A DNA stretch of 18,140 nt from an uncultured Candidatus Saccharibacteria bacterium (GTDB lineage: Bacteria > Patescibacteriota > Minisyncoccia > Phycocordibacterales > UBA918): positions 1 through 18,140 of the forward strand of contig CAYGKU010000016.1 in the NCBI GenBank assembly GCA_964350745.1. The letters are read 5' to 3'. A model generated the notes under the pieces. That model searched no databases. It was not told the DNA's origin and was given only the letters and a program-made list of their open reading frames with translations. Within the stretch, counting starts at the first letter, position 1. Every line of letters starts with the position of its first letter. Below are positions 341 through 14,710 of this stretch, in pieces. A program made the translations under genes and the position numbers.

Positions 341-347
341 CAAAAGT

Positions 348-388
348 AAAATAAAACACACTGGCGACTAGCCAGTGTGTTTTATTTT
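348..388 (+). terminator. Rho-independent terminator-like hairpin after tRNA-Arg(GCG)
   Basis: aaaataaaacacactggc / gccagtgtgttttatttt is a perfect 18-bp stem around the loop gacta. The 3' arm ends in a T run. Confidence 0.75.
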
Positions 389-390
389 AG

Positions 391-530
391 AAAGCAAATA
401 GTTTTGCTTTCGGCTTTTGTGCTAGGCGGAGATATGTTTTTCTGCCCCTGCCTAGGGCAGAAAAACATTCGAGCCGGGGTCGAGAACACTTAGTAGAATT
501 TGAACGCAGTGAAAATTATACTTAGTGATT
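391..530 (+). repeat. Copy A of the tRNA-linked structured repeat family
   Basis: Ordered blocks: hairpin aaagcaaa-tagt-tttgcttt (391-410); ttcggcttttgtg; ggcggag (425-431); a 14-bp hairpin atgtttttctgccc/gggcagaaaaacat (434-468) with loop ctgccta; tcgagccggggtc (469-481); cttagtagaat (489-499); and a second acttagtgatt (520-530). The same ordered blocks recur in copies B, D, F and G. Confidence 0.75.
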
Positions 531-780
531 CGTGACCACAAATTGGTATATTACCAGAGCGTTTGTGATTGCCAGACCGGCTCCCGCCAGGCGCAGGGTT
601 TTTATGAAGCGATAGCGGAATAAAAAGCCGTAGCGCAAACCTGGTTTGAAAATTGCATGAACATACCAAAGTATGTTCATGTGCGGAGTGTGAAGGGTTT
701 TTTTGCGGTTGGGTTTGTGTAAAACGGTTGCGCAAAGCTCAGTTTGTGAGTCTTGGTCAATTTTCTGCTAAACTACTTGT

Positions 781-5552: not shown

Positions 5553-5682
5553 GTTTATTAAATTTCGTTAATAGAAGTGATCCGAGTATTTATGGGTTGT
5601 TGTGCTGTTGTGTGACGGTTTCTGAGTCAGAATATCTTGACGCAGGTTACCAAATGTTCTCACTGACTACACCAGTTGTGAG

Positions 5683-5790
5683 CACTAAGTACCTGCTATC
5701 CCAGATCGCCACATCTTGCGCTAGGAAAGGCACAAAATGTATGGCTCCGCTTCACAAACAAGCACGAAAGCAAAGCAGGTTTTGCTAGTG
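5683..5790 (-). repeat. Copy F of the structured repeat family; an orphan with no adjacent tRNA
   Basis: The minus strand reads agcaaa-acctgc-tttgct, ttcgtgcttgtttgtg, aagcggag, a hairpin with loop tttcctag, cgatctggg, then acttagtg. Block order and spacing match copies A and B. It overlaps only a 63-aa ORF (5597-5788) that has no support. Confidence 0.65.
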
Positions 5791-5885
5791 TGTACTCCCT
5801 AGGCGTTGCGAAAAAATACCCACCAAGCCCCACTAGGGTTTACGAGCGACGGATGTCGCTCTTATCGGTGGGAGGTAATTTCTGT

Positions 5886-5945
5886 AAAATACATGAAAAA
5901 TACAAAAAAATACAATTTTGCGATAAAATATACACATAAAATACT
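5886..5945 (+). promoter_or_regulatory. AAAATAC(A) direct repeats (A-tract array) immediately upstream of the ATPase gene
   Basis: AAAATACA occurs at 5886-5893, 5897-5904 and 5907-5914, giving 10-11 bp spacing. AAAATATACA is at 5925-5934 and AAAATACT at 5938-5945. A TAAAAT -10-like hexamer is at 5924-5929, and the ATG is at 5951. Confidence 0.4.
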
Positions 5946-5950
5946 CAGTT

Positions 5951-7156
5951 ATGACATATTCAAAAAAGCCAAATCCTTTTAATCCAAACGGAGTAGTATC
6001 GCCTAATCTCTTTGCAGGCAGGTCAGCTCAGGTAAACAAAATATTAAGAAAGCTAGAGTTGGCGAAAAATGGCACACCCTCAAGCTTCATTTTTGTTGGA
6101 GATCGTGGTATTGGTAAAACTGCATTGGCTAAGCTAACGCGCTTTGTGGCAACTAGTAACGATGAGGGTTTATATAACCTAAACTTTCTCTCATCATATT
6201 ATTCTGTGGCAAGAGGACAATCGACTCCAGAAGTTTTGCAAGCGTCTTTAAACGAACTCACTGAGAGGATGCCTTCAGGAGTTTTAGATAAAATGCAGAG
6301 GCATTTAGGGAAGTTGTTTTCAAATGGAAAGTTTTCAATTGGTGCCTTTGGCGCATCTGTTGAAATTGCCGGTGGTGAAACGCAGGACGACACTACAGTT
6401 CGTGACCAAGTCATATCAATACTCTCGAATGTGATAACTGCCTTGCGAGAAGAACCAGACAGTCCCAAGGATGGTGTGTTAATCGTAATTGATGAGTTGA
6501 ACAATCTTTCGGATATTCAAGAATGTGCTCAGCTGGTTAGAGGTATTGTAACTACACTAGATATAAAAGATTTAGGCTATATATCTTTCATTTTGATTGG
6601 GTATAGAGATACGGAACGAAAATTTTTTGAAGGAGATGAATCAGCAAGGCGTAACATTGATGAAGTGTCATTGAACCCTATGCCAGACGAAGAAGCGTAT
6701 CAGATTTTGTGTAAAGGTTTTGAGAGTGCGGAAGTAAAATGGGACGAGCCAGCAGCAAGGGATTCGATTAAGAGAACAGCAGGTTATCCGTACGCTGTGC
6801 AGCTTTTGGGTCATAATGCCTATGAAGCTGATACAGATGGAAACATTGATGAAGATGATTGGATAAAAGCAACTGTATCAACAGCACTTGAACTTCAGAC
6901 TAAAGAATTTTCAACGATGTATTCATTTCAAGGTAAAAAAGGCTCCCGAGAAGCAATAATTGATTGTGTAATTGATAATAATGCTTGTCTTTCTAAATCT
7001 CATATTAATAGCCTGTGTCCGAAGTTAAATGTATACAGAGAATTGCCCAAGCTTATTCAACAAGGGAGCTTAATTGAGGATGCTGACGGAAAGATTTGTA
7101 TCAGTTCCCAGTTACTTAGGTGGGCAGTCATTTTCTCAAGACCGGATAAACAATAA
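5951..7156 (+). CDS. P-loop NTPase of the ORC/Cdc6 - archaeal-ATPase (PF01637-like) / STAND style, with a helical and probable winged-helix C-terminus
   Basis: N-terminal FAGRSAQVNKILRKL (the F-x-G/D-R-x-x-E/Q-hhh-L lead-in typical of this class). Walker A GDRGIGKT (aa 50-57). Walker B VLIVIDELNNL (aa 176-186). No enzymatic effector domain was recognised. Confidence 0.6.
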   Translation: MTYSKKPNPFNPNGVVSPNLFAGRSAQVNKILRKLELAKNGTPSSFIFVGDRGIGKTALAKLTRFVATSNDEGLYNLNFLSSYYSVARGQSTPEVLQASLNELTERMPSGVLDKMQRHLGKLFSNGKFSIGAFGASVEIAGGETQDDTTVRDQVISILSNVITALREEPDSPKDGVLIVIDELNNLSDIQECAQLVRGIVTTLDIKDLGYISFILIGYRDTERKFFEGDESARRNIDEVSLNPMPDEEAYQILCKGFESAEVKWDEPAARDSIKRTAGYPYAVQLLGHNAYEADTDGNIDEDDWIKATVSTALELQTKEFSTMYSFQGKKGSREAIIDCVIDNNACLSKSHINSLCPKLNVYRELPKLIQQGSLIEDADGKICISSQLLRWAVIFSRPDKQ

Positions 7157-7181
7157 AACCACTCAGCTGAGTGGTTTTATT
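7155..7181 (+). terminator. Rho-independent terminator after the ATPase gene
   Basis: aaaaccactcagc/gctgagtggtttt is a perfect palindromic stem followed by attgttt. Confidence 0.7.
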
Positions 7182-7242
7182 GTTTCTAGACTGACTGAGA
7201 TTGGTGGGGTATTAACCCCTCTCAGTAGGTCTCACTATTAGG

Positions 7243-7350
7243 TGCCCCCAGCAGGAATCCTCTACGAGCCGGGGATGTTGTTGTCTTATTAGACATCCAA
7301 CATCCCTTCGATTCCTGGCGTGAGCAAAACTATTTGCTCACTCTGGGGGC
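7243..7350 (-). repeat. Copy C: a compact variant of the repeat family built as a long foldback of tRNA 3'-end-like arms
   Basis: tgcccccagcaggaatc (7243-7259) is identical to the + strand image of the tRNA-Arg(TCT) 3' end (7558-7574). A 9/10-bp hairpin ggggatgttg...caacatccct lies at 7271-7307. ttcgattcctggcgtgagca (7307-7326) is 19/20 identical to the tRNA-Arg(GCG) 3' end (321-340). The hairpin tgagcaaa-acta-tttgctca (7321-7340) is the reverse-loop version of the A/B hairpin. The copy ends ctctgggggc (7341-7350). Confidence 0.65.
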
Positions 7351-7399
7351 ATATAGTTTAGTTTGCAGGAATCGGTCAGGAGTCAGTTATTTTTATGTT

Positions 7400-7509
7400 C
7401 ATTTCATTCACTAAAAATATACTGCTCACGACCCTGACTCGACTCTCTCTTTCTCCGCTTTGCTACGAAATTCACATGAGTCTCCGTCTTTCGATTCCTG
7501 CTGGGGGCT
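7400..7509 (-). repeat. Copy G of the structured repeat family, directly behind tRNA-Arg(TCT)
   Basis: The minus strand reads agcccccagcaggaatcga (an inverted copy of the tRNA 3' end, 7491-7508, 18/18), then agacggagac (7480-7489), tcgagtcagggtc (7430-7442) and ttagtgaat (7406-7414). These are collinear with copies D and A. Confidence 0.65.
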
Positions 7510-7520
7510 ACAAACAGCAA

Positions 7521-7548
7521 CGACCAAAATGTATACACATTTTGGTCG
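7521..7548 (-). terminator. Hairpin terminator between tRNA-Arg(TCT) and its inverted 3'-end copy
   Basis: cgaccaaaatgt/acattttggtcg is a 12-bp perfect stem with loop atac. It forms the core of a longer palindrome spanning 7491-7576. Confidence 0.6.
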
Positions 7549-7557
7549 GCTGATTTG

Positions 7558-7629
7558 TGCCCCCAGCAGGAATCGAACCCACATCAAGAGCTTAGAAGTC
7601 TCCTGTTCTATCCATTGAACTATGGGGGC
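7558..7629 (-). tRNA. tRNA-Arg (anticodon TCT)
   Basis: The reverse complement folds as a 72-nt cloverleaf. Acceptor GCCCCCA/TGGGGGC, D arm GTTC/GAAC, anticodon loop CTTCTAA, T arm GTGGG-TTCGATT-CCTGC, discriminator A. No CCA is encoded. Confidence 0.9.
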
Positions 7630-7748
7630 AATGGATCGTGTCTCACAGGATAACAAAAAAATGCCTAATAGGGAATAGTTGGCGGAATCATATAAAAAAG
7701 CAGAGGTGTGAAAAAATATTTTCACACCTCTTAAATGGTAAGTACTTT

Positions 7749-8183
7749 TCATCTTGGTTTAGGTTGTCTAAATTTGAATTTCTTAAAAGATCCATATAAA
7801 TCTATAAGCATCCTTTTAAATTTTTTGGACCACTTATTTTTCGCTCTCAAACATTCCACAATCTCATCTTCCAGCATAGGTAGTGAATAATTTTTTATAA
7901 TATCACCATCATTATCTTGGTGTGTGCGAATTTCTGTACCAACAGAGTAGCATCCGCCGATAATCCTTAGGTAGCGAAAAGTGTAATCTGTTGTGTATCC
8001 GTTGACCTCGATTGATATATGTGGATGATCGACATCGTTATCTGAGTGCAGAAGTAAAGGTGTGCCATTAATGGATTTGTCATAATCGCCAAAAACCACT
8101 TTGTGAATCCCAATTCTATTTAAGAACTCAGTAACTGCCAGTTTGCCTGAGTCTAAAATCTCATTGCTGATTTCGGTAGACAT
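7749..8183 (-). CDS. Hypothetical 144-aa protein with no recognisable family
   Basis: Intact ORF with AGGAGA 7 nt upstream of the ATG. Basic C-terminal tail KKFKRMLIDLYGSFKKFKFRQPKPR. No motif was recognised. Confidence 0.5.
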   Translation of the reverse strand: MSTEISNEILDSGKLAVTEFLNRIGIHKVVFGDYDKSINGTPLLLHSDNDVDHPHISIEVNGYTTDYTFRYLRIIGGCYSVGTEIRTHQDNDGDIIKNYSLPMLEDEIVECLRAKNKWSKKFKRMLIDLYGSFKKFKFRQPKPR

Positions 8184-8313
8184 ATTGTTCTCCTATATTT
8201 TTTAGCAAGTTTGAACTTGGCTCTAAATGAACTGATTCAACCCTACTTAATTTGTTCAAGAAAGTTGTTGCTCTTTTAAATATAGAACAAAATGGTTTTT
8301 GTGTAAATAGCAA

Positions 8314-8343
8314 TTAAAAAACAGCGCTTGATAAACAAGCGCC
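8314..8343 (-). terminator. Rho-independent terminator of the 283-aa gene
   Basis: On the minus strand, ggcgcttg-tttat-caagcgct is followed by gtttttt. It begins 2 nt after the stop at 8345, which makes the 283-aa and 144-aa genes separate transcription units. Confidence 0.7.
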
Positions 8344-8344
8344 G

Positions 8345-9196
8345 CTAATATTCATCGTCAAAACAGATGAAGTTGATCATTTCATTTGCCATTTTTACGA
8401 TCTCATCATTGTCTGACTTCTGAAGACCTTTTGTTATTTTTAAGGTTCTAAAAACCCCTCTTTTGTTTGCATTTACTCTTCTTTGGAGATTCCTTTCTTT
8501 TGGGTTTAGTCCAAAAAAATGAGCCTGCACTTCTGTGGGAACTGATGATCCTTCGTCTCCCGGAAAACCAAGCATCAGGTCTCTTCCCAAAGAACAAAAG
8601 CGTTTAAGTTTTTCAAATATCGGTGAACTTTTGAATTTTTCAAAAGAAGCCAGTCTATCCTCAAACTCTGGTCCGAACGGAACCTGGTCGATCCTTTCCG
8701 GATAGGTTGGAGGGGACAGTAGTACCAATCGGTCTATCTTGAACTTTTTGATACGCGTCTTTGCCAGTACACTGACAGCGATATGAGCTCCGTCACAAAG
8801 CCCGATCAAAGTGATGTCATCAAATACTCCAAATTCCTCGAAAAATATTTCCAGCAGATCGACCAGCTTTTCTGTCTGCAGGTCCAGAGTGTTGAGAGCT
8901 TTGTCATTTTCCGAAAACTCCTTGCCTGATGGAGTATATAAAAGACTGAACACTCCCTTTTCGACCAGTTGTTGAGACAGGCAATTGTATAGTGAACCGA
9001 TCAAAGTTCGATTTGAATTTCGATCTGCCCTTTGAGTGGTCCTGTCGATGAACACGACTAGTTTGTTTGCGTCCTTTGTTTTGGCGACAGTGTGTTGCAA
9101 AAAGTTACTTTCTATCCAAAGGTAACCGGCCCTTGAGGTGGTTGTCTTAGACCACCTTGCCTTTGTCTCCTCAAGCGGAGGTTGTTCTACTTGCAT
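8345..9196 (-). CDS. Alpha/beta-hydrolase-fold-like protein with cysteine in the nucleophile elbow (G-L-C-D-G)
   Basis: The strand/helix pattern KLVVFID ... FSLLYTPSG ... ITLIGLCDGAHIAVSVLA ... RLVLLSPP matches beta3 to beta6 of alpha/beta hydrolases. The Cys134 codon is at 8795-8797. Candidate acid and His residues lie downstream (GFPGDEGSS, QAHFFG). GGAGA sits upstream of the ATG. Confidence 0.45.
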   Translation of the reverse strand: MQVEQPPLEETKARWSKTTTSRAGYLWIESNFLQHTVAKTKDANKLVVFIDRTTQRADRNSNRTLIGSLYNCLSQQLVEKGVFSLLYTPSGKEFSENDKALNTLDLQTEKLVDLLEIFFEEFGVFDDITLIGLCDGAHIAVSVLAKTRIKKFKIDRLVLLSPPTYPERIDQVPFGPEFEDRLASFEKFKSSPIFEKLKRFCSLGRDLMLGFPGDEGSSVPTEVQAHFFGLNPKERNLQRRVNANKRGVFRTLKITKGLQKSDNDEIVKMANEMINFICFDDEY

Positions 9197-9228
9197 ATTT
9201 TCTCCTTGTGTATTGTCAATCTGTTTGC

Positions 9229-9257
9229 AATATAGCGTTGAGAGGACGGGGTGTCAA
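9229..9257 (-). promoter_or_regulatory. Sigma70-like promoter for the 283-aa gene
   Basis: The minus strand reads TTGACA (9257-9252), a 17-nt spacer, then TATATT (9234-9229), about 30 nt upstream of the ATG at 9196. Confidence 0.5.
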
Positions 9258-9433
9258 TATTTTGTTCCGCCTTCGACTTAATTTTTAATGACTGGAAGGG
9301 TGCCGTCCTGCGAATGAAAAATATAGTCGTCAACTCCTTATTTTACACTTAAAATGGAATTGCTCTTGTGGTGCAAGTCTCTGGCGACAAAATGCAAAAT
9401 TCCACCAGCAGAAGCTGGCGGAATTTCACATTG

Positions 9434-9591
9434 TGCGTGATGAGAGACTTGTCCCGCTTTTTCTAATTCACTACGTTCATAAGAACGCTGGACACGGCTC
9501 GACCGTTTCTCTCCCTAGGAAAGGGGAGAGAAACATGTCTCCGCCGTTCAAGTCTCTACGGAAAGCATGAAGATGCTTTCCTCATCGCGCA
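9434..9591 (-). repeat. Copy D of the structured repeat family, bounded by direct and inverted copies of the tRNA-Val 3' end
   Basis: The minus strand reads tgcgcgatgag, a hairpin ggaaagcatc-ttc-atgctttcc (9560-9581), agagacttgaac, ggcggagac, an 11-bp hairpin gtttctctccc/gggagagaaac (9505-9534) with a cctag-containing loop, tcgagccgtgtcc (9490-9502), gtagtgaat (9466-9474), and finally caagtctctcatcacgca (9434-9451). Confidence 0.75.
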
Positions 9592-9594
9592 CGA

Positions 9595-9632
9595 ACAAAA
9601 ATCGCCCAAGCAAAGCTTGAGCTGATTTTTGT
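9595..9632 (-). terminator. Hairpin terminator behind tRNA-Val
   Basis: acaaaaatc/gatttttgt forms an outer stem around an inner caagc/gcttg stem. It is embedded in a longer palindrome that includes ctcatcgcgca and its complement (9581-9648). Confidence 0.6.
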
Positions 9633-9637
9633 ACTCG

Positions 9638-9710
9638 TGCGCGATGAGAGACTTGAACTCCCGACCTTCTCGGTGTAAACGAGCTGCTCTACCAACTGAG
9701 CTAATCGCGC
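9638..9710 (-). tRNA. tRNA-Val (anticodon TAC)
   Basis: The reverse complement is GCGCGATTAGCTCAGTTGGTAGAGCAGCTCGTTTACACCGAGAAGGTCGGGAGTTCAAGTCTCTCATCGCGCA. The cloverleaf is canonical with anticodon loop TTTACAC. No CCA is encoded. Confidence 0.92.
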
Positions 9711-9841
9711 ATGTTATCTTCCTTCCTTGGTTTGACTGATTTTGATATCAGTAGGCTATATACTACCTGTTTTTAAAATAATTTCAATATCTTATCATTT
9801 TGTAGGTTTAGATTTACCTGGTCTTTAATAAGTAAATATTA

Positions 9842-9866
9842 AACCCCAGAATATAATTCTGGGGTT
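9842..9866 (-). terminator. Terminator hairpin after the 79-aa gene
   Basis: aaccccagaat-ata-attctggggtt is an 11-bp perfect stem 23 nt downstream of the stop, followed on the minus strand by T-rich sequence. Confidence 0.6.
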
Positions 9867-9888
9867 CTTGACTCAATACCAAACTAAC

Positions 9889-10128
9889 CTAGATTGTTTG
9901 GTATCCGCCACCCATTCCCCAGCCAAGGTTATTGCCTGCATAGGCAATAATACCAGCTTGAGAAACAAAGGGTTTTTCATAACCACCGTTTTTAGCTATA
10001 AGTTCCGCAGCCTCGATGACGTTTTCTCGAGAAAAACTGGCCTCGATGATGCCGATGATTATACTCCCTTCTGGTAATTCTAAAGCGTCGGTAGGAGGGG
10101 TGGTTCTAGAAATGATCAAATGTTTCAT
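9889..10128 (-). CDS. Small (79 aa) hypothetical protein with a Gly-rich C-terminus
   Basis: GGAGA lies 8 nt upstream of the ATG and the gene has its own terminator. The C-terminus is NNLGWGMGGGYQTI. No family was recognised. Confidence 0.5.
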   Translation of the reverse strand: MKHLIISRTTPPTDALELPEGSIIIGIIEASFSRENVIEAAELIAKNGGYEKPFVSQAGIIAYAGNNLGWGMGGGYQTI

Positions 10129-10266
10129 TCTATATCTCCAATTGATTAATCAATAGAAAGCATATGAAATGCCAAGCTCAAAATAGCACGAATGGTATCT
10201 AATGTCAATAGTGTGGGCGTAGCTGGTTTGGGGTTGTTGGCTTTTGGCGGTATACTTTTTACTACT

Positions 10267-10539
10267 ATGGTAGAAATGCGATGTACTGTTACCGGTAAGG
10301 TGCAAGGGGTGCGCTATCGGGATTATGTGGTCAGTATGGCTGAGGAGCTGGGGGTGTTTGGTTATGTTCAAAATCAATCCGATGGTTCGGTTTTGGTGGT
10401 AGCGCAAGGTGAGCCGGATACGCTTAAGGAAATGGTCGAGTGTTTGCATGAAGGGTCGCTTTTGGCACGGGTGGATGGTGTGGCGGTGGACTGGGGTACT
10501 GCCAATGCAACTTATGATGAATTCTCGTTGTTGCAATAG
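10267..10539 (+). CDS. acyP: Acylphosphatase
   Basis: VTGKVQGVRYRDYV...GVFGYVQNQSDGSVLVVAQGE...L matches the acylphosphatase signatures V-x-G-x-V-Q-G-V-x-F-R and G-(W/Y)-V-x-N. The ORF continues upstream to 10192 and adds a hydrophobic 25 aa, so the start is uncertain (10192, 10267 or 10276). Confidence 0.8.
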   Translation: MVEMRCTVTGKVQGVRYRDYVVSMAEELGVFGYVQNQSDGSVLVVAQGEPDTLKEMVECLHEGSLLARVDGVAVDWGTANATYDEFSLLQ

Positions 10540-10542
10540 GTT

Positions 10543-11232
10543 ATGAATAATAGAGAAGAAAAAGTTCTACCCGGTTGTGTGGGATTTATCATGGATGGCA
10601 ATCGTCGTTTTGCTAAAGAGCAAGGGCTGAGTGCGGTTGAAGGACATTTGGCCGGAAAGGAAAAGTTTTTGGAGGTGACGGATTGGTTGGTGGAAATGAA
10701 AATACCACACGGAGTCTTTTATGCATTTTCGACCGAGAACTGGCGACGGGAAAAGGAAGAGGTTCAGTACTTGATGAATTTGTTTCGAGGACTTTTAGGG
10801 CAGATCAAAGATGGGTCAGATCAGCGGGAGGTGAACGTGAGGATCATCGGTCGACGCGATGATCTGCCGGAGGATATTCAAAACAGCATAAAAGAACTTG
10901 AAGCTAAAAAGTCTCAATATGAGACTACTATTTGGGTGGCGTTGTCGTACGGAGGGCGGGCGGAGATATTGGCGGCAGTGAACCGGGCGACTGCTCTTGG
11001 TGAAGAAGTGGATGAAGATAAGTTTTCCAAGCTACTCTCCACCGCCGATATGCCCGACCCTGATCTTATTGTTAGAACCAGTGGAGAGAAGAGACTGTCC
11101 AATTTTCTGCCGTGGCAATCCGTGTACAGCGAACTGTTCTTCATAGATACCTACTGGCCTGCTTTTACAAAACCAGAATTTGAGCGTATTCTAAATGAAT
11201 ATGGAAACAGAGAAAGAAGGATTGGGCGCTGA
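10543..11232 (+). CDS. uppS: Undecaprenyl-diphosphate synthase (cis-isoprenyl transferase)
   Basis: GFIMDGNRRFAKE, FSTENWRR and RTSGEKRLSNFLPWQSVYSELFF are the canonical UppS motifs. Confidence 0.9.
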   Translation: MNNREEKVLPGCVGFIMDGNRRFAKEQGLSAVEGHLAGKEKFLEVTDWLVEMKIPHGVFYAFSTENWRREKEEVQYLMNLFRGLLGQIKDGSDQREVNVRIIGRRDDLPEDIQNSIKELEAKKSQYETTIWVALSYGGRAEILAAVNRATALGEEVDEDKFSKLLSTADMPDPDLIVRTSGEKRLSNFLPWQSVYSELFFIDTYWPAFTKPEFERILNEYGNRERRIGR

Positions 11233-11239
11233 TCTTAAA

Positions 11240-11980
11240 ATGGAACCGACGGTTTTGTATGAAGATGAGGAAGTGCTGGTGGTGAGTAAGCCATACGGCA
11301 TGTTGGTGCATGAGGATTGGCAGTCGGGAGTGGAAGGTACTTTGGTCGAGTGGTTCTTGAAGCGAGTGCCGGAAGCAAAAGGGGTGGGAGAAGTATCCGA
11401 GAAGTCTGATGGAACCCCGCTTGAGCGTTCGGGGGTGGTGCACAGGCTTGACCGAGAGACGTCCGGTGTGATGGTGCTCGCCAAGACCAACGAAGCTCAC
11501 CGTCATTTAAAGACACAATTTCATGATCGCTTGGCCAAGAAAGAATATCGGGCTTTGGTGTACGGGCGGATCCATGACCGGTATGCCACTATCAACCGAC
11601 CGATCGGTCGAAATGCCAAAGACTTCAAGAAACGTTCAGCAGAGCGAGGAGCCAAAGGAACTTTGCGCGAAGCGGTCACTCACTTGGAGCGAATCGGAAT
11701 AGGGGAGTATGAGGGCGAGACTTTTTCTTACCTAAAACTGAGACCGCAAACGGGCCGGACGCATCAGCTGCGAGTGCATATGAGAGCTATTGATCGACCG
11801 ATCGTGGGTGACACTTTGTATGCTGGTAAGGAATTCGAGTCGTCTAATAACCTTGGTTTAAAGCGTCTGGCTTTGCACGCGCATGTTTTGGAGATAGTTT
11901 TGCCAAACGGTGAGTCGACGCGTTTTATCTCTCCGATCCCGCCGGAATTGGAACAAGCGGCCGAACGTATTGCAGAGTAG
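11240..11980 (+). CDS. RluA-family pseudouridine synthase (RluD/RluC-like catalytic domain, no N-terminal S4 domain)
   Basis: HRLDRETSGVMVLAKT (catalytic Asp motif), GRTHQLRVH and LHAH are present. The ATG at 11240 avoids overlap with uppS. The ORF also opens at 11195, which would overlap uppS by 38 nt. Confidence 0.85.
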   Translation: MEPTVLYEDEEVLVVSKPYGMLVHEDWQSGVEGTLVEWFLKRVPEAKGVGEVSEKSDGTPLERSGVVHRLDRETSGVMVLAKTNEAHRHLKTQFHDRLAKKEYRALVYGRIHDRYATINRPIGRNAKDFKKRSAERGAKGTLREAVTHLERIGIGEYEGETFSYLKLRPQTGRTHQLRVHMRAIDRPIVGDTLYAGKEFESSNNLGLKRLALHAHVLEIVLPNGESTRFISPIPPELEQAAERIAE

Positions 11981-12044: not shown

Positions 12045-12674
12045 ATGAAAACAGCAGTTACAGGGGTGGCAATTTCACCCGTCAATATGAGTGAGCGCAA
12101 AGAGCTAGGTATCAGACCTGGTGATACAGTGCGTGTACACCAAAAGATCCAAGATAAGGGTAAGGTTCGTATTCAGGTTTTTGAAGGCTTGGTATTGGCC
12201 CGAAAGCACGGTGATGAGCCGGGAGCAACCTTTACCGTACGTAAGGTGGCTAGTGGAGTAGGGGTAGAGAAGATCTTCCCGTTATACTCACCACTTATCG
12301 ATAAGATCGAGATCGTGAAGCGAGCTAAGGTACGTCGAGCGAAGCTTTACTACATCCGTGAAAAAGTGGCTCGCGAGATCAAGCGTCAAATGCGTCGCAT
12401 GTCTCTAGTATCTTTTGCTACTGAATCTGAAGCGGAAGCAGCAGCAAAGGCAGCCGCAGAAGCTAAGGCGAAAGAAGAAGCTGAGGCCAAAGCCAAAGAA
12501 GAGGCTGAACTAAAAGAAAAAGAGGTAGCTGAAGCTAAGGCCAAGGAAGAGGCTGCTAAAGCCGAAGCTGAGACCGAAGTCAAAGCGGAAGAAGCTACCG
12601 AAACCGCTCCAGAGGAAGTAAAGGAAACTGAGGGAGAGAAAAAAGAAGAAAAAGCTGAAGAAAAGAAGAGCTAG
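12045..12674 (+). CDS. rplS: 50S ribosomal protein L19 with a ~90-aa Ala/Glu/Lys-rich C-terminal extension
   Basis: The L19 core is [33 protein letters not shown]...[43 protein letters not shown]. The tail is repetitive (EAKAKEEAE-like). Confidence 0.9.
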
Positions 12675-14374: not shown

Positions 14375-14459
14375 GTCCAGGTGGCGAAATTGGTAGACGC
14401 GCTACCTTGAGGGGGTAGTGGGAATTATTCCCGTGCTGGTTCAACTCCAGTCCTGGACA
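14375..14459 (+). tRNA. tRNA-Leu (anticodon GAG), class II with a long variable arm
   Basis: Acceptor GTCCAGG/CCTGGAC, D region GCGAAATTGGTAGACGC, anticodon stem CTACC/GGTAG with loop TTGAGGG, variable arm TGGGAATTATTCCCGT, T arm GCTGG-TTCAACT-CCAGT, discriminator A. No CCA is encoded. Confidence 0.9.
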
Positions 14460-14500
14460 CAAAATCAAGTCGGCGTTTAGCCGACTTTTTGTGTCCAGGA
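14451..14500 (+). terminator. 50-nt near-perfect palindrome that spans the last 9 nt of tRNA-Leu and acts as a terminator-like hairpin
   Basis: tcctggacacaaaa (14451-14464) pairs with ttttgtgtccagga (14487-14500). aagtcggc pairs with gccgactt around the loop gttta. A T run is present. Confidence 0.7.
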
Positions 14501-14603
14501 AGCAAGCAAATAGTTTTGCTTTCGTGCCTTTGTGTCGGGCGTAGCTATAATTTTGCTCCTTATCTAGAGCAAAATTAGGCGAGCCGGAGGAGCAAGTCGG
14601 CAT
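14491..14603 (+). repeat. Copy B of the structured repeat family
   Basis: gtgtccagga is an inverted copy of the tRNA-Leu 3' end. It is followed by aagcaaa-tagt-tttgctt (14504-14521), whose 16-nt core is identical to copy A. Then come ttcgtgcctttgtg, gggcgtag (14537-14544), an 11-bp hairpin taattttgctc/gagcaaaatta (14548-14577) and gcgagccggagga (14579-14591). The copy ends in caagtcggc (14593-14601), a direct repeat of 14466-14474. Confidence 0.75.
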
Positions 14604-14710
14604 TTTTTTATGCTCTTTAATTTAAAATTGGTTGGTGGTTTTAGATAATAAGCATTACACAACACTTTCCATATTCTCGTTTTTAAACCGGTGCGGTATT
14701 ATAGAAGGAT

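Follow-up and report, generated by a model that had tools for sequence, protein, structure and literature searches.

A probable integrase-less mobile RNA cassette at the 3' end of a tRNA-Val gene, and a family of structured units behind tRNA and protein genes of CPR bacteria

The stretch of DNA analysed here (the window; 18,140 nt from a single contig of an uncultured Candidatus Saccharibacteria bacterium) holds genes for tRNA-Arg(gcg), tRNA-Arg(tct), tRNA-Val(tac) and tRNA-Leu(gag), all of which (4/4) carry a structured non-coding unit of the same kind (units A, B, D and E), while an additional copy (unit C) stands as an orphan (Table 1). The unit of main interest (unit D) follows an intact tRNA-Val(tac) gene on the minus strand, whose lower boundary is placed at 9637 or 9638 depending on the caller (ARAGORN, Rfam), whose upper boundary lies at 9710, and for which a promoter-like site is found at 9787-9760. 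Read along the minus strand, the locus is composed of the tRNA (ending in its own tail, here called X), a trailer with a terminator-like hairpin (termA), cgtgcgcgatgag, a 22-nt hairpin (hp2), gtagagacttgaac, a 97-nt module, a second X, an older terminator (termB) and a partial antisense copy of the T-loop. The two pieces that are antisense to the tRNA tail and are separated by hp2 are jointly referred to as X'.

Table 1. Coordinates of the parts of unit D and of the remaining units in the window (tRNA-Val locus first)
Feature	Position	Strand	Basis or details
tRNA-Val(tac), intact gene	9637..9710	-	ARAGORN; Rfam tRNA 67 bits
X, left copy of direct repeat (attL side), tRNA positions 56-74, CAAGTCTCTCATCGCGCAC	9637..9655	-	
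Trailer and terminator-like hairpin termA, insert-borne	9594..9636	-	stem 9622-9604, then T run (terminator scan)
X' part 1, antisense to acceptor 3' strand, cgtgcgcgatgag on minus strand	9581..9593	-	
hp2, 22-nt hairpin splitting the inverted copy, ggaaagcatgaagatgctttcc	9560..9581	-	
X' part 2, antisense to T-loop and T-stem, gtagagacttgaac on minus strand; directly abuts module	9546..9559	-	
Module domain 1: GGCGGAGACATG, covarying hairpin with loop CUUUCCUAG, GGTCGAGCC	9496..9545	-	
Module domain 2, short-type tail: helix GUCCAGC/GCGGGAC around CUUAU-GAACGUAGUGAA-UUAG	9452..9495	-	alignment
Right copy of X (attR side), the displaced original tRNA-Val 3' end, 18/19 bases	9433..9451	-	
Older layer: original terminator termB (arms 9388-9409 / 9414-9435) and remnant antisense T-loop copy 9371-9382	9371..9432	-	
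Unit D module, behind tRNA-Val(tac)	9449-9545	-	covariance model
Unit A, behind tRNA-Arg(gcg) 269-341	342..539	+	terminator 347-389, hp2 390-411, X' 412-423
Unit A module, long-type	425-539	+	covariance model, 107 bits
Unit B, behind tRNA-Arg(tct) 7557-7629	7242..7556	-	terminator, X' 7490-7510, degenerate module 7372-7488
Unit C, orphan (hp2 and module 5636-5751), no adjoining tRNA	5636..5790	-	44.9 bits
Unit E, behind tRNA-Leu(gag) 14375-14460	14461..14649	+	hp2, X', degenerate module 14538-14649

An earlier note on this DNA had claimed that the tRNA-Val tail is present three times around the unit (in sense, as a split inverted copy and as a direct copy), and all three copies proved to be real and well above what chance would give. 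The direct copy is identical to 9637-9655 at 18 of 19 bases, and at this length (19-mer, ≤3 mismatches) 2 matches were found where 0.01 were expected by chance. The first half of the inverted copy (GTTCAAGTCTCT, 9546-9557) is complementary to 9647-9658 at 12/12 positions, and the second (CTCATCGCGCA, 9581-9591) opens the arm of a 21-nt palindrome (9581-9601 vs 9628-9648), hp2 being situated between the two halves as the note had described. The long palindrome (9581-9648) is centred on termA, and X' part 1 forms a 14-nt perfect antisense match to tRNA positions -11..+2. A further, partial inverted copy (GTGCAAGTCTCT, 9371-9382) had been missed; for its 12-mer (≤1 mismatch) 3 matches were found where 0.11 were expected. 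The same architecture is repeated at tRNA-Arg(tct), where a direct repeat (7242-7259, 18/18) is accompanied by an inverted copy (7490-7518), and where unit B additionally holds a second hp2-like hairpin and an antisense T-arm fragment (7307-7345). In unit E the terminator stem takes in the end of the tRNA.

A covariance model (R1) built from 15 copies finds five module copies in the window, the tRNA-adjacent ones all lying in the orientation of their tRNA, and matches unit D with 93 bits (E 4e-21). Alignment of the regions downstream of the four tRNAs with the orphan gives a common module that is made up of GGCGGAGAYATG, a hairpin with loop CUUUCCUAG, TCGAGCC, a second hairpin (either short, CUUAU-GAACGUAGUGAA-UUAG, or long, ACUUAG...CUUAGU) and an end in GGGAC or GUGACC. 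The model retrieved 38 matches (32 distinct). Across the 32 distinct copies, 95% of the cells of the first hairpin are paired and 15 of its 18 pairs show compensatory change, a result that 0 of 500 shuffles equalled and to whose pairing no slid control came close; in the second domain (the tail helix) 13 of 15 pairs show compensatory change. Furthermore, G-U cells exceed A-C cells (20 vs 5), and the fold of the sense (tRNA) strand is more stable than that of the antisense strand in 26 of 28 units, on average by 7.5 kcal/mol. Taken together, the covariation, the G-U excess and the stability of the sense strand indicate that the structure acts on the tRNA-sense strand, and on such modelling the module would most simply act as RNA. 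The hairpin hp2 is likewise conserved throughout the family; its stem covaries, and its loop is of the CUGC type in many units (the loops of unit D, ucuuca, and unit A, auag, are of other types). Both hp2 and the core hairpin differ in sequence between the window and locus L005, with pairing kept.

When units D and A and the element behind tRNA-Arg were compared with Rfam 15 (gathering and permissive thresholds), only the tRNAs passed, every other match staying below 23 bits and far under gathering. No promoter of its own was predicted for the module, upstream of which lies a terminator-like hairpin, and no ORF was found within the 186-nt insert. A small ORF was considered, as GGAGACATG resembles a ribosome-binding site with a start codon; the frame is not kept between copies, so the module is not coding, and the changes in the stem are compensatory. 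On inspection, a likeness to hammerhead or C/D-box RNAs was set aside as well (GATGAG and the hairpin after it derive from the reverse complement of the tRNA itself, and the invariant core is absent). A retroviral-type primer-binding site, suggested by 18 nt of complementarity to a tRNA 3' end, was also rejected, since the complement takes in gene-encoded trailer and not CCA.

Pattern scans of genome and metagenome collections gave 19 true loci, 18 of which are titled as CPR/Patescibacteria (Paceibacteria, Nomurabacteria, Kaiserbacteria, Minisyncoccia, Saccharibacteria) or as unlabelled metagenome, the exception (L011) being labelled Azotimanducaceae; a twentieth (L006) was a chance match in a coding sequence of Atopobiaceae. 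The approximately 32 distinct copies (unit size 190-320 bp) occur in CPR genomes and metagenomes at eight tRNA species, i.e. Val(tac), Val(gac), Arg(tct), Arg(gcg), Leu(gag), Phe(gaa), Lys(ttt) and Ala(tgc), and at the protein genes ftsZ, rplB and rplE. CPR genomes are tiny and gene-dense, and most of the tRNA genes examined carry at least one cassette, an occupancy that is biased because most of the loci were gathered by searching for the module itself. A recurrence of the last 20 nt of the tRNA (≤3 mismatches, ≤600 nt downstream) was found at 11 of 33 tRNA rows, or 10 of 32 distinct loci, since the tRNA-Arg(tct) of L010 and L023 is the same sequence in two collections and was counted once. 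Many other units, A and E among them, lack a long direct repeat and have an antisense stretch that extends merely 3-5 nt into the tRNA, which implies that one mechanism may not cover all copies.

The earlier note had read the repeats around unit D as an attL/attR-like pair bounding a tiny integrase-less insert, and the relatives, whose orthologous loci were reached through UppS homologues, support this with empty sites. In the closest ones (L017/L018; UppS 79% identical) tRNA-Val ends in CCA and is succeeded by a plain terminator with no unit, and in L015 nothing stands behind tRNA-Val. In L013/L014 the 3' end of tRNA-Val passes directly into aatattaaataccaccagcttctgctggtgg...tttgtcgccagagacttg, the homologue of the window sequence beyond the direct repeat; the right copy of X aligns there with the true tRNA 3' end of L013, and the termB layer of the window is homologous to what directly succeeds tRNA-Val in both loci. 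A comparable empty site exists for tRNA-Arg(tct) in L013/L014; in L013, ...gggggcac runs straight into ccaatagtgagacc..., that is, into the window sequence beyond 7242-7259. The hairpin termA is missing at the empty sites of L013 and L017 and is identical in L005. The latter locus is approximately 93% identical to the window from the start of the tRNA to the end of the repeat, with both outer flanks unalignable. The empty sites, together with the presence of the unit between unrelated flanks in L005, show that window 9452-9636 arrived as a unit. On these comparisons the segment is an insertion, and the direct repeat the displaced old tail of the tRNA. The insertion is thus present in some relatives and absent in others, with precise boundaries, and tRNA-Val stays complete after it (ARAGORN and Rfam both score a full gene). 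Repeated insertions pile up at one tRNA, and L013/L014 hold a degenerate older unit, with a repeat of its own, beyond the termB homologue.

Among the repeats of the family, those at tRNAs are 18-20 nt long, with a left edge that always falls at T-loop position 55-57 and a right edge that always falls at position 74, and that of ftsZ is a perfect 33-nt repeat whose last bases are the stop codon. In every case the repeat thus extends as far as the gene is functional, its length being set by the target, so that the alternative offered in the earlier note, a very long target-site duplication, is refuted in the form of a staggered cut of fixed width. Neither was the term 'scar' borne out, as unit D is intact and belongs to a family with a conserved structure. 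In the nested arrangement at tRNA-Arg in L010, two units that are approximately 65% alike and have unrelated terminators are separated by a repeat that is identical over a block of 18-19 nt (19 of the last 20 nt); such a near-identical repeat between diverged units points to sequential insertion and led us to reject tandem duplication as the source of the repeat. Moreover, a single MAG (represented by L004, L009 and L012) contains four copies, of which three have identical cores and that of L009 differs at a few hairpin positions (with an identical tail), while their target-matching ends differ; two of them flank a Fic gene (L004). Judged from these sequences, the four copies would represent a recent spread within one genome.

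In light of the above, we consider that window 9433-9636 probably represents a mobile RNA cassette of approximately 205 bp that lacks an integrase, any protein gene and a detectable promoter, and that recombined into the 3' end of tRNA-Val. Such a cassette would supply a replacement tail for the tRNA (positions 56-74) with a trailer and terminator of its own, and would also bring the antisense tail copy X' (split by hp2) and the 97-nt two-hairpin module, whereas the original tail and its terminator would be pushed downstream and give rise to the direct repeat. The downstream displacement of the old tail explains the order sense, inverted, direct. We infer that recombination across the short block of identity X (Campbell-type or site-specific) may move the cassette as a whole, that the enzyme responsible could be encoded elsewhere, that the module RNA might be expressed by read-through from the strong upstream promoter, and that X' may pair with the host gene's end to close a long helix, serving either site recognition or the processing of read-through transcripts.

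The search for an enzyme covered several scales. Pfam scans of the window ORFs and of the neighbours of units (20 neighbouring ORFs) gave no integrase/recombinase, reverse transcriptase or other candidate, a crude motif scan of 237 ORFs across all loci examined gave no tyrosine-recombinase motif, no integrase lies within ~4-10 kb of any unit, and neither ~330 kb of loci nor viral contigs yielded a candidate for an autonomous mobiliser. In viral contigs three scans gave nothing or chance matches only, all of which the covariance model rejected, and a phage origin was discarded on these grounds. As no enzyme is linked to the units, the way in which they move is deduced solely from their footprints, and neither an excised circle nor a junction was seen.

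In 21 of 23 units, a stretch (mostly 8-25 nt) that is exactly antisense to the 3' terminal region of the upstream gene is present between gene and module. It directly abuts the module in 20 of 23, and in the ftsZ unit is set off from it by 58-70 nt on the upstream side. Its reach varies from 3 to 25 nt and defines two classes, one that extends to the T-loop (units D, B, L005, L008 Val, L015 Arg-tct, L015 Leu and L023 Leu) and one that covers the last 3-5 nt of the tRNA (positions 70-74) together with the unit's own trailer. X' tracks its tRNA, as exemplified by tRNA-Arg, where one and the same change in tRNA, X' and repeat sets L015 apart from the window. Furthermore, X' agrees better with the integrated host junction than with the junction of the element itself, and in ftsZ it pairs with 9 host-only nt outside the repeat and 5 nt inside it. 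A transcript that reads through (278 nt) folds at -133.7 kcal/mol (z = -10.4) and places the 3' half of the tRNA in a long helix with X', while one that stops at termA adopts the normal cloverleaf (-48.6 kcal/mol). On these fold energies, the earlier suggestion of a trailer that pairs with and sequesters the acceptor 3' strand is tenable for read-through transcripts only, and fails for those that stop at termA. One possible role of X' is to close a helix marking where processing would take place between host RNA and cassette RNA.

The better fit of X' to the host junction agrees with a processing helix, with a by-product of template switching or with a guide role. The second of these, which concerns the inverted copy alone and is compatible with insertion, is, in our view, a real if doubtful possibility: X' would be a functionless product of quasipalindrome correction that extends the terminator palindrome, the selected arm of the tRNA being copied onto the free arm during replication. 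Template switching has been documented as creating and maintaining perfect hairpins (PMC8794818), and a process of this kind would account for the variable reach of X' (3 to 25 nt), for its match to the left junction as integrated, bases beyond the repeat included (the 9 host-only nt of ftsZ), and for the mirroring of tRNA substitutions in X'. It is harder to reconcile with the interruption of X' by hp2 at a fixed place and the abutment of X' on the module in 20/23 units, with the ftsZ arms, which are separated by 70 nt and enclose no palindrome that could seed an extension, and with the sole plain terminator at an empty site (L017/L018), which stops short of the tRNA. As for the guide role, we regard it as a speculative proposal with a low probability of being correct: the unit would be a self-targeting mobile RNA gene, in which X' and the scaffold form a guide (either in RNA form or as a folded single strand that these naturally competent cells take up) to the 3' ends of highly expressed genes, and a host or helper enzyme acting in trans would insert the cassette. 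If true, this would explain the re-targeting of one scaffold family to at least 8 tRNA species and 3 protein genes, as well as the fact that the gene end is always restored.

Returning to the favoured reading of a mobile cassette, its first rival as regards the insert as a whole holds that the units are remnants of integrase-bearing islands or prophages (CIMEs in the strict sense), inserted at the T-loop by their own tyrosine integrase and deleted to the att-proximal 200-300 bp, the module being an att-arm or regulatory region. A repeat from the T-loop to the 3' end with a restored tRNA is the classic sign of integrase-mediated insertion into tRNA genes, and it is what the tRNA-Val locus displays. 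In addition, islands that carry genes occupy the same sites (in L013 a block of restriction-modification and T5orf172 genes adjoins tRNA-Arg), the Fic gene of L004 is located between two units, and the gene content 3' of tRNA-Val varies among the relatives. We nevertheless judge this origin unlikely, given that the ~32 copies are uniform in size and architecture and show compensatory changes in the sense strand (which is unlike decay), that the integrase search around the units and the scans of viral contigs were both empty, and that the use of 8 tRNA species and 3 protein genes by one module family, with target-dependent repeats, is hard to attribute to protein-encoded specificity.

The high occupancy of tRNAs and the strong structural conservation would also fit an RNA that is vertically inherited and beneficial to the host. 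In its full form, this explanation holds that the module belongs to the CPR tRNA transcription units (with, e.g., a 3'-processing or insulating role) and that the repeats arose by local tandem duplication and gene conversion, with no mobility. It draws on the units at 4/4 tRNAs of the window and at most tRNAs of the related loci (figures subject to the sampling bias given above), on the conservation of the structure over distant CPR classes, and on the way in which the antisense stretch follows tRNA changes (L015 vs window, tRNA-Arg). We find it improbable, as it is contradicted by the empty sites of the closest relatives, the identical 18-19 nt repeats between strongly diverged units, the unrelated flanks of the unit in L005, the near-identical cores at different targets in one MAG, and the units of ftsZ, rplB and rplE with their replaced 3' ends. 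Finally, an artefact in which the assembler would have produced the inverted duplication by a chimeric join has a negligible probability and is effectively refuted: a second assembly of the same organism (L001) does break at the repeat (its contig ends at window position 9665), but the same tRNA-Val arrangement is found in the independent assemblies L005 and L008, L004 holds near-identical units with the same split inverted copy (with no intact tRNA within the stretch examined), and the architecture recurs, with divergence and compensatory changes, in many independent assemblies and sample sets.

Among known systems, the cassettes most resemble tRNA-targeting integrative elements and CIMEs, with which they share insertion into the 3' part of the tRNA, a repeat from the T-loop to the gene end, restoration of the tRNA by the element, tandem accumulation and the existence of empty sites; as in a CIME, attL/attR-like repeats flank a segment free of recombination genes. 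They differ in that they measure 190-320 bp, carry neither gene nor integrase and have no cognate large element that we could find, in that their cargo is a conserved structured RNA-like module with an antisense copy of the target, and in that one family uses many tRNAs as well as the 3' ends of protein genes.

At CTX-phi-type IMEX and integron attC sites, a recombinase encoded elsewhere acts on a hairpin folded from a single strand. Single-strand exchange between such a folded site and a duplex target would yield the order X, loop, X', element, X, the cassettes likewise carry no recombinase, and their covarying hairpin recalls attC. They depart from these systems in apparently lacking a dif-like or attC core, in the better fit of X' to the host junction, in G-U pairs on one strand that favour RNA, and in a hairpin that misses the crossover in many units (it covers the crossover in the T-loop-reaching class and does not in the units with X' at positions 70-74). 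On this comparison, X' might form the descending arm of such a folded site. An integron cassette with attC proper was rejected, as no integrase lies nearby and the boundaries are placed at T-loop TTC|RA or at GTGAC|C and not at GTTRRRY.

With MITEs, REP/BIME, Correia and RUP elements the cassettes have in common a small size, the lack of coding capacity, many copies per genome and secondary structure, and differ from them by a strict orientation at gene 3' ends and by the restoration of the gene end. MITEs in particular were excluded because the two ends of a unit (trailer vs GGGAC/GTGACC) do not form inverted repeats and because the repeats (18-33 nt) depend on the target, with no short fixed duplication. 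A variable target-complementary stretch beside a conserved structured scaffold is also characteristic of the IS110 bridge RNA and of the IscB/TnpB omega RNA; the cassettes, unlike these, have no adjacent effector gene, possess long direct repeats and show a complement that often includes the element-borne trailer, and no similarity to either RNA was detected by sequence or Rfam comparison. An IS110-type element was accordingly dismissed (no ORF, hence no DEDD recombinase, and 18-33-nt repeats). Small RNAs linked to tRNAs (3' external transcribed spacer RNAs, tRNA-flanked non-coding RNAs) resemble the cassettes in that they are structured, follow a tRNA in its own orientation and may be released from its transcript, whereas the cassette module lies beyond a terminator-like hairpin, is apparently mobile and also occurs behind protein genes.

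The full-text literature that was searched contained no description of such elements, and Rfam no family, and as far as searched we therefore view the cassettes as an apparently undescribed variant of tRNA-targeting integrative/cis-mobilizable elements. If their distribution is genome-wide, a noticeable share of the scarce non-coding DNA of CPR would belong to this uncatalogued family; if they are mobile, they would rank among the smallest site-specific insertion elements known, and would occupy the ends of essential genes harmlessly by bringing a spare gene end and a terminator. The module RNA is a candidate for a new class of functional RNA, and the placement of a target-complementary stretch beside a fixed scaffold hints at a possible guide-based system of insertion or processing. 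On the practical side, the repeats of the cassettes break assemblies at tRNA genes and may be mistaken for prophage att sites.

The units are also found at the ends of protein-coding genes, namely ftsZ, rplB and rplE in three of the comparison loci (coordinates of all features are collected in the table). The ftsZ unit (L026) has a perfect direct repeat of 33 nt, which takes in the stop codon and the 10 codons before it, and its antisense stretch forms a 14-15-bp helix with ftsZ sequence, the ftsZ side of which lies mostly beyond this repeat. At rplB and rplE the antisense stretches match the last codons of the gene, and the repeats of the gene end are degenerate.

Most unit-bearing tRNA genes, including 4 of 4 in the window, end in ...CAC (A73, C74) and carry no encoded CCA, an exception being a tRNA-Ala (L020) that ends in ...CCACCA. 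As CCA is encoded in the tRNA-Val of two relatives (L017 and L018) that have no unit behind it, we consider that insertion of a unit may replace the encoded CCA end. In the second assembly of the window organism (L001, equivalent to window positions 9665-11786) the contig stops 10 nt short of the tRNA-Val repeat, and it is likely that such units break short-read assemblies at tRNA genes.

Within unit B (behind tRNA-Arg(tct)), an antisense T-arm fragment, to which a hairpin resembling hp2 (the small hairpin splitting the antisense stretch) is fused, matches tRNA-Arg(gcg) better than it does the local tRNA. Together with the 16-nt core of this hairpin (AGCAAATAGTTTTGCT), identical in units A (tRNA-Arg(gcg)) and E (tRNA-Leu(gag)), this likeness suggests that units of different tRNAs have exchanged sequence. 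Furthermore, unit A is followed after ~40 nt by an inverted copy of part of tRNA-Arg(gcg), close to which there is no direct repeat.

Behind the tRNA-Leu of two relatives (L013 and L014), the unit appears truncated, because an rve-family transposase gene occupies the place expected for the module; terminator, antisense stretch and hp2 are still there. A diversity-generating retroelement (bAvd and reverse transcriptase) follows a few kb beyond the transposase gene. In L004, the Fic/DOC gene has one half of a tRNA-Val-like 3' end on either side (gttcaggtctct ... ctcatggcgcac) and looks like a one-gene cassette within an array. tRNA-Arg(tct) and tRNA-Val lie in a variable island hotspot that extends from the pilus operon to acylphosphatase/uppS: its accessory genes differ between the window and each of the relatives L014 and L015.

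In the second element at tRNA-Arg(tct), a terminator comes after a hairpin of ~50 nt (GUGAGACCUACUGAGAGGGGUUAAUACCCCACCAAUCUCAGUCAGUCUAG). Conservation of this element across four genomes is high, and no Rfam family matches it. Elsewhere in the window, the ribosomal protein L19 extension is made of 24-nt repeats that encode a low-complexity tail rich in alanine, glutamate and lysine.

Positions of the features in the window and in the comparison loci (L handles)
Feature	Location	Strand	Remark
Unit at ftsZ 3' end	L026 3215-3520	minus	
Units directly 3' of rplB	L007 5940-6480		three copies, tandem or partial
Unit directly 3' of rplE	L003 6420-6620		
Antisense T-arm fragment	window 7307-7345		within unit B
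Inverted copy of tRNA-Arg(gcg) acceptor and T-stem 3' strand	window 581-592		gctcccgccagg
rve-family transposase gene and diversity-generating retroelement	L013/L014 12400-16150		
Fic/DOC gene between units	L004 1-1964		single gene, identical unit on each side (n=2)
Variable stretch	window 5560-9430		compared with L014 4200-9190, L015 8190-9530
STAND-like ATPase	window 5951-7156		accessory gene of pilus-to-uppS stretch
Two unknown ORFs	window 7749-9196		accessory genes of pilus-to-uppS stretch
Second conserved element	window 7150-7241	minus	directly after tRNA-Arg(tct) 3' end copy
Second conserved element, other loci	L013 4545-4638; L008 6847-6945; L002 3870-3950		
Ribosomal protein L19 C-terminal extension	window 12429-12600
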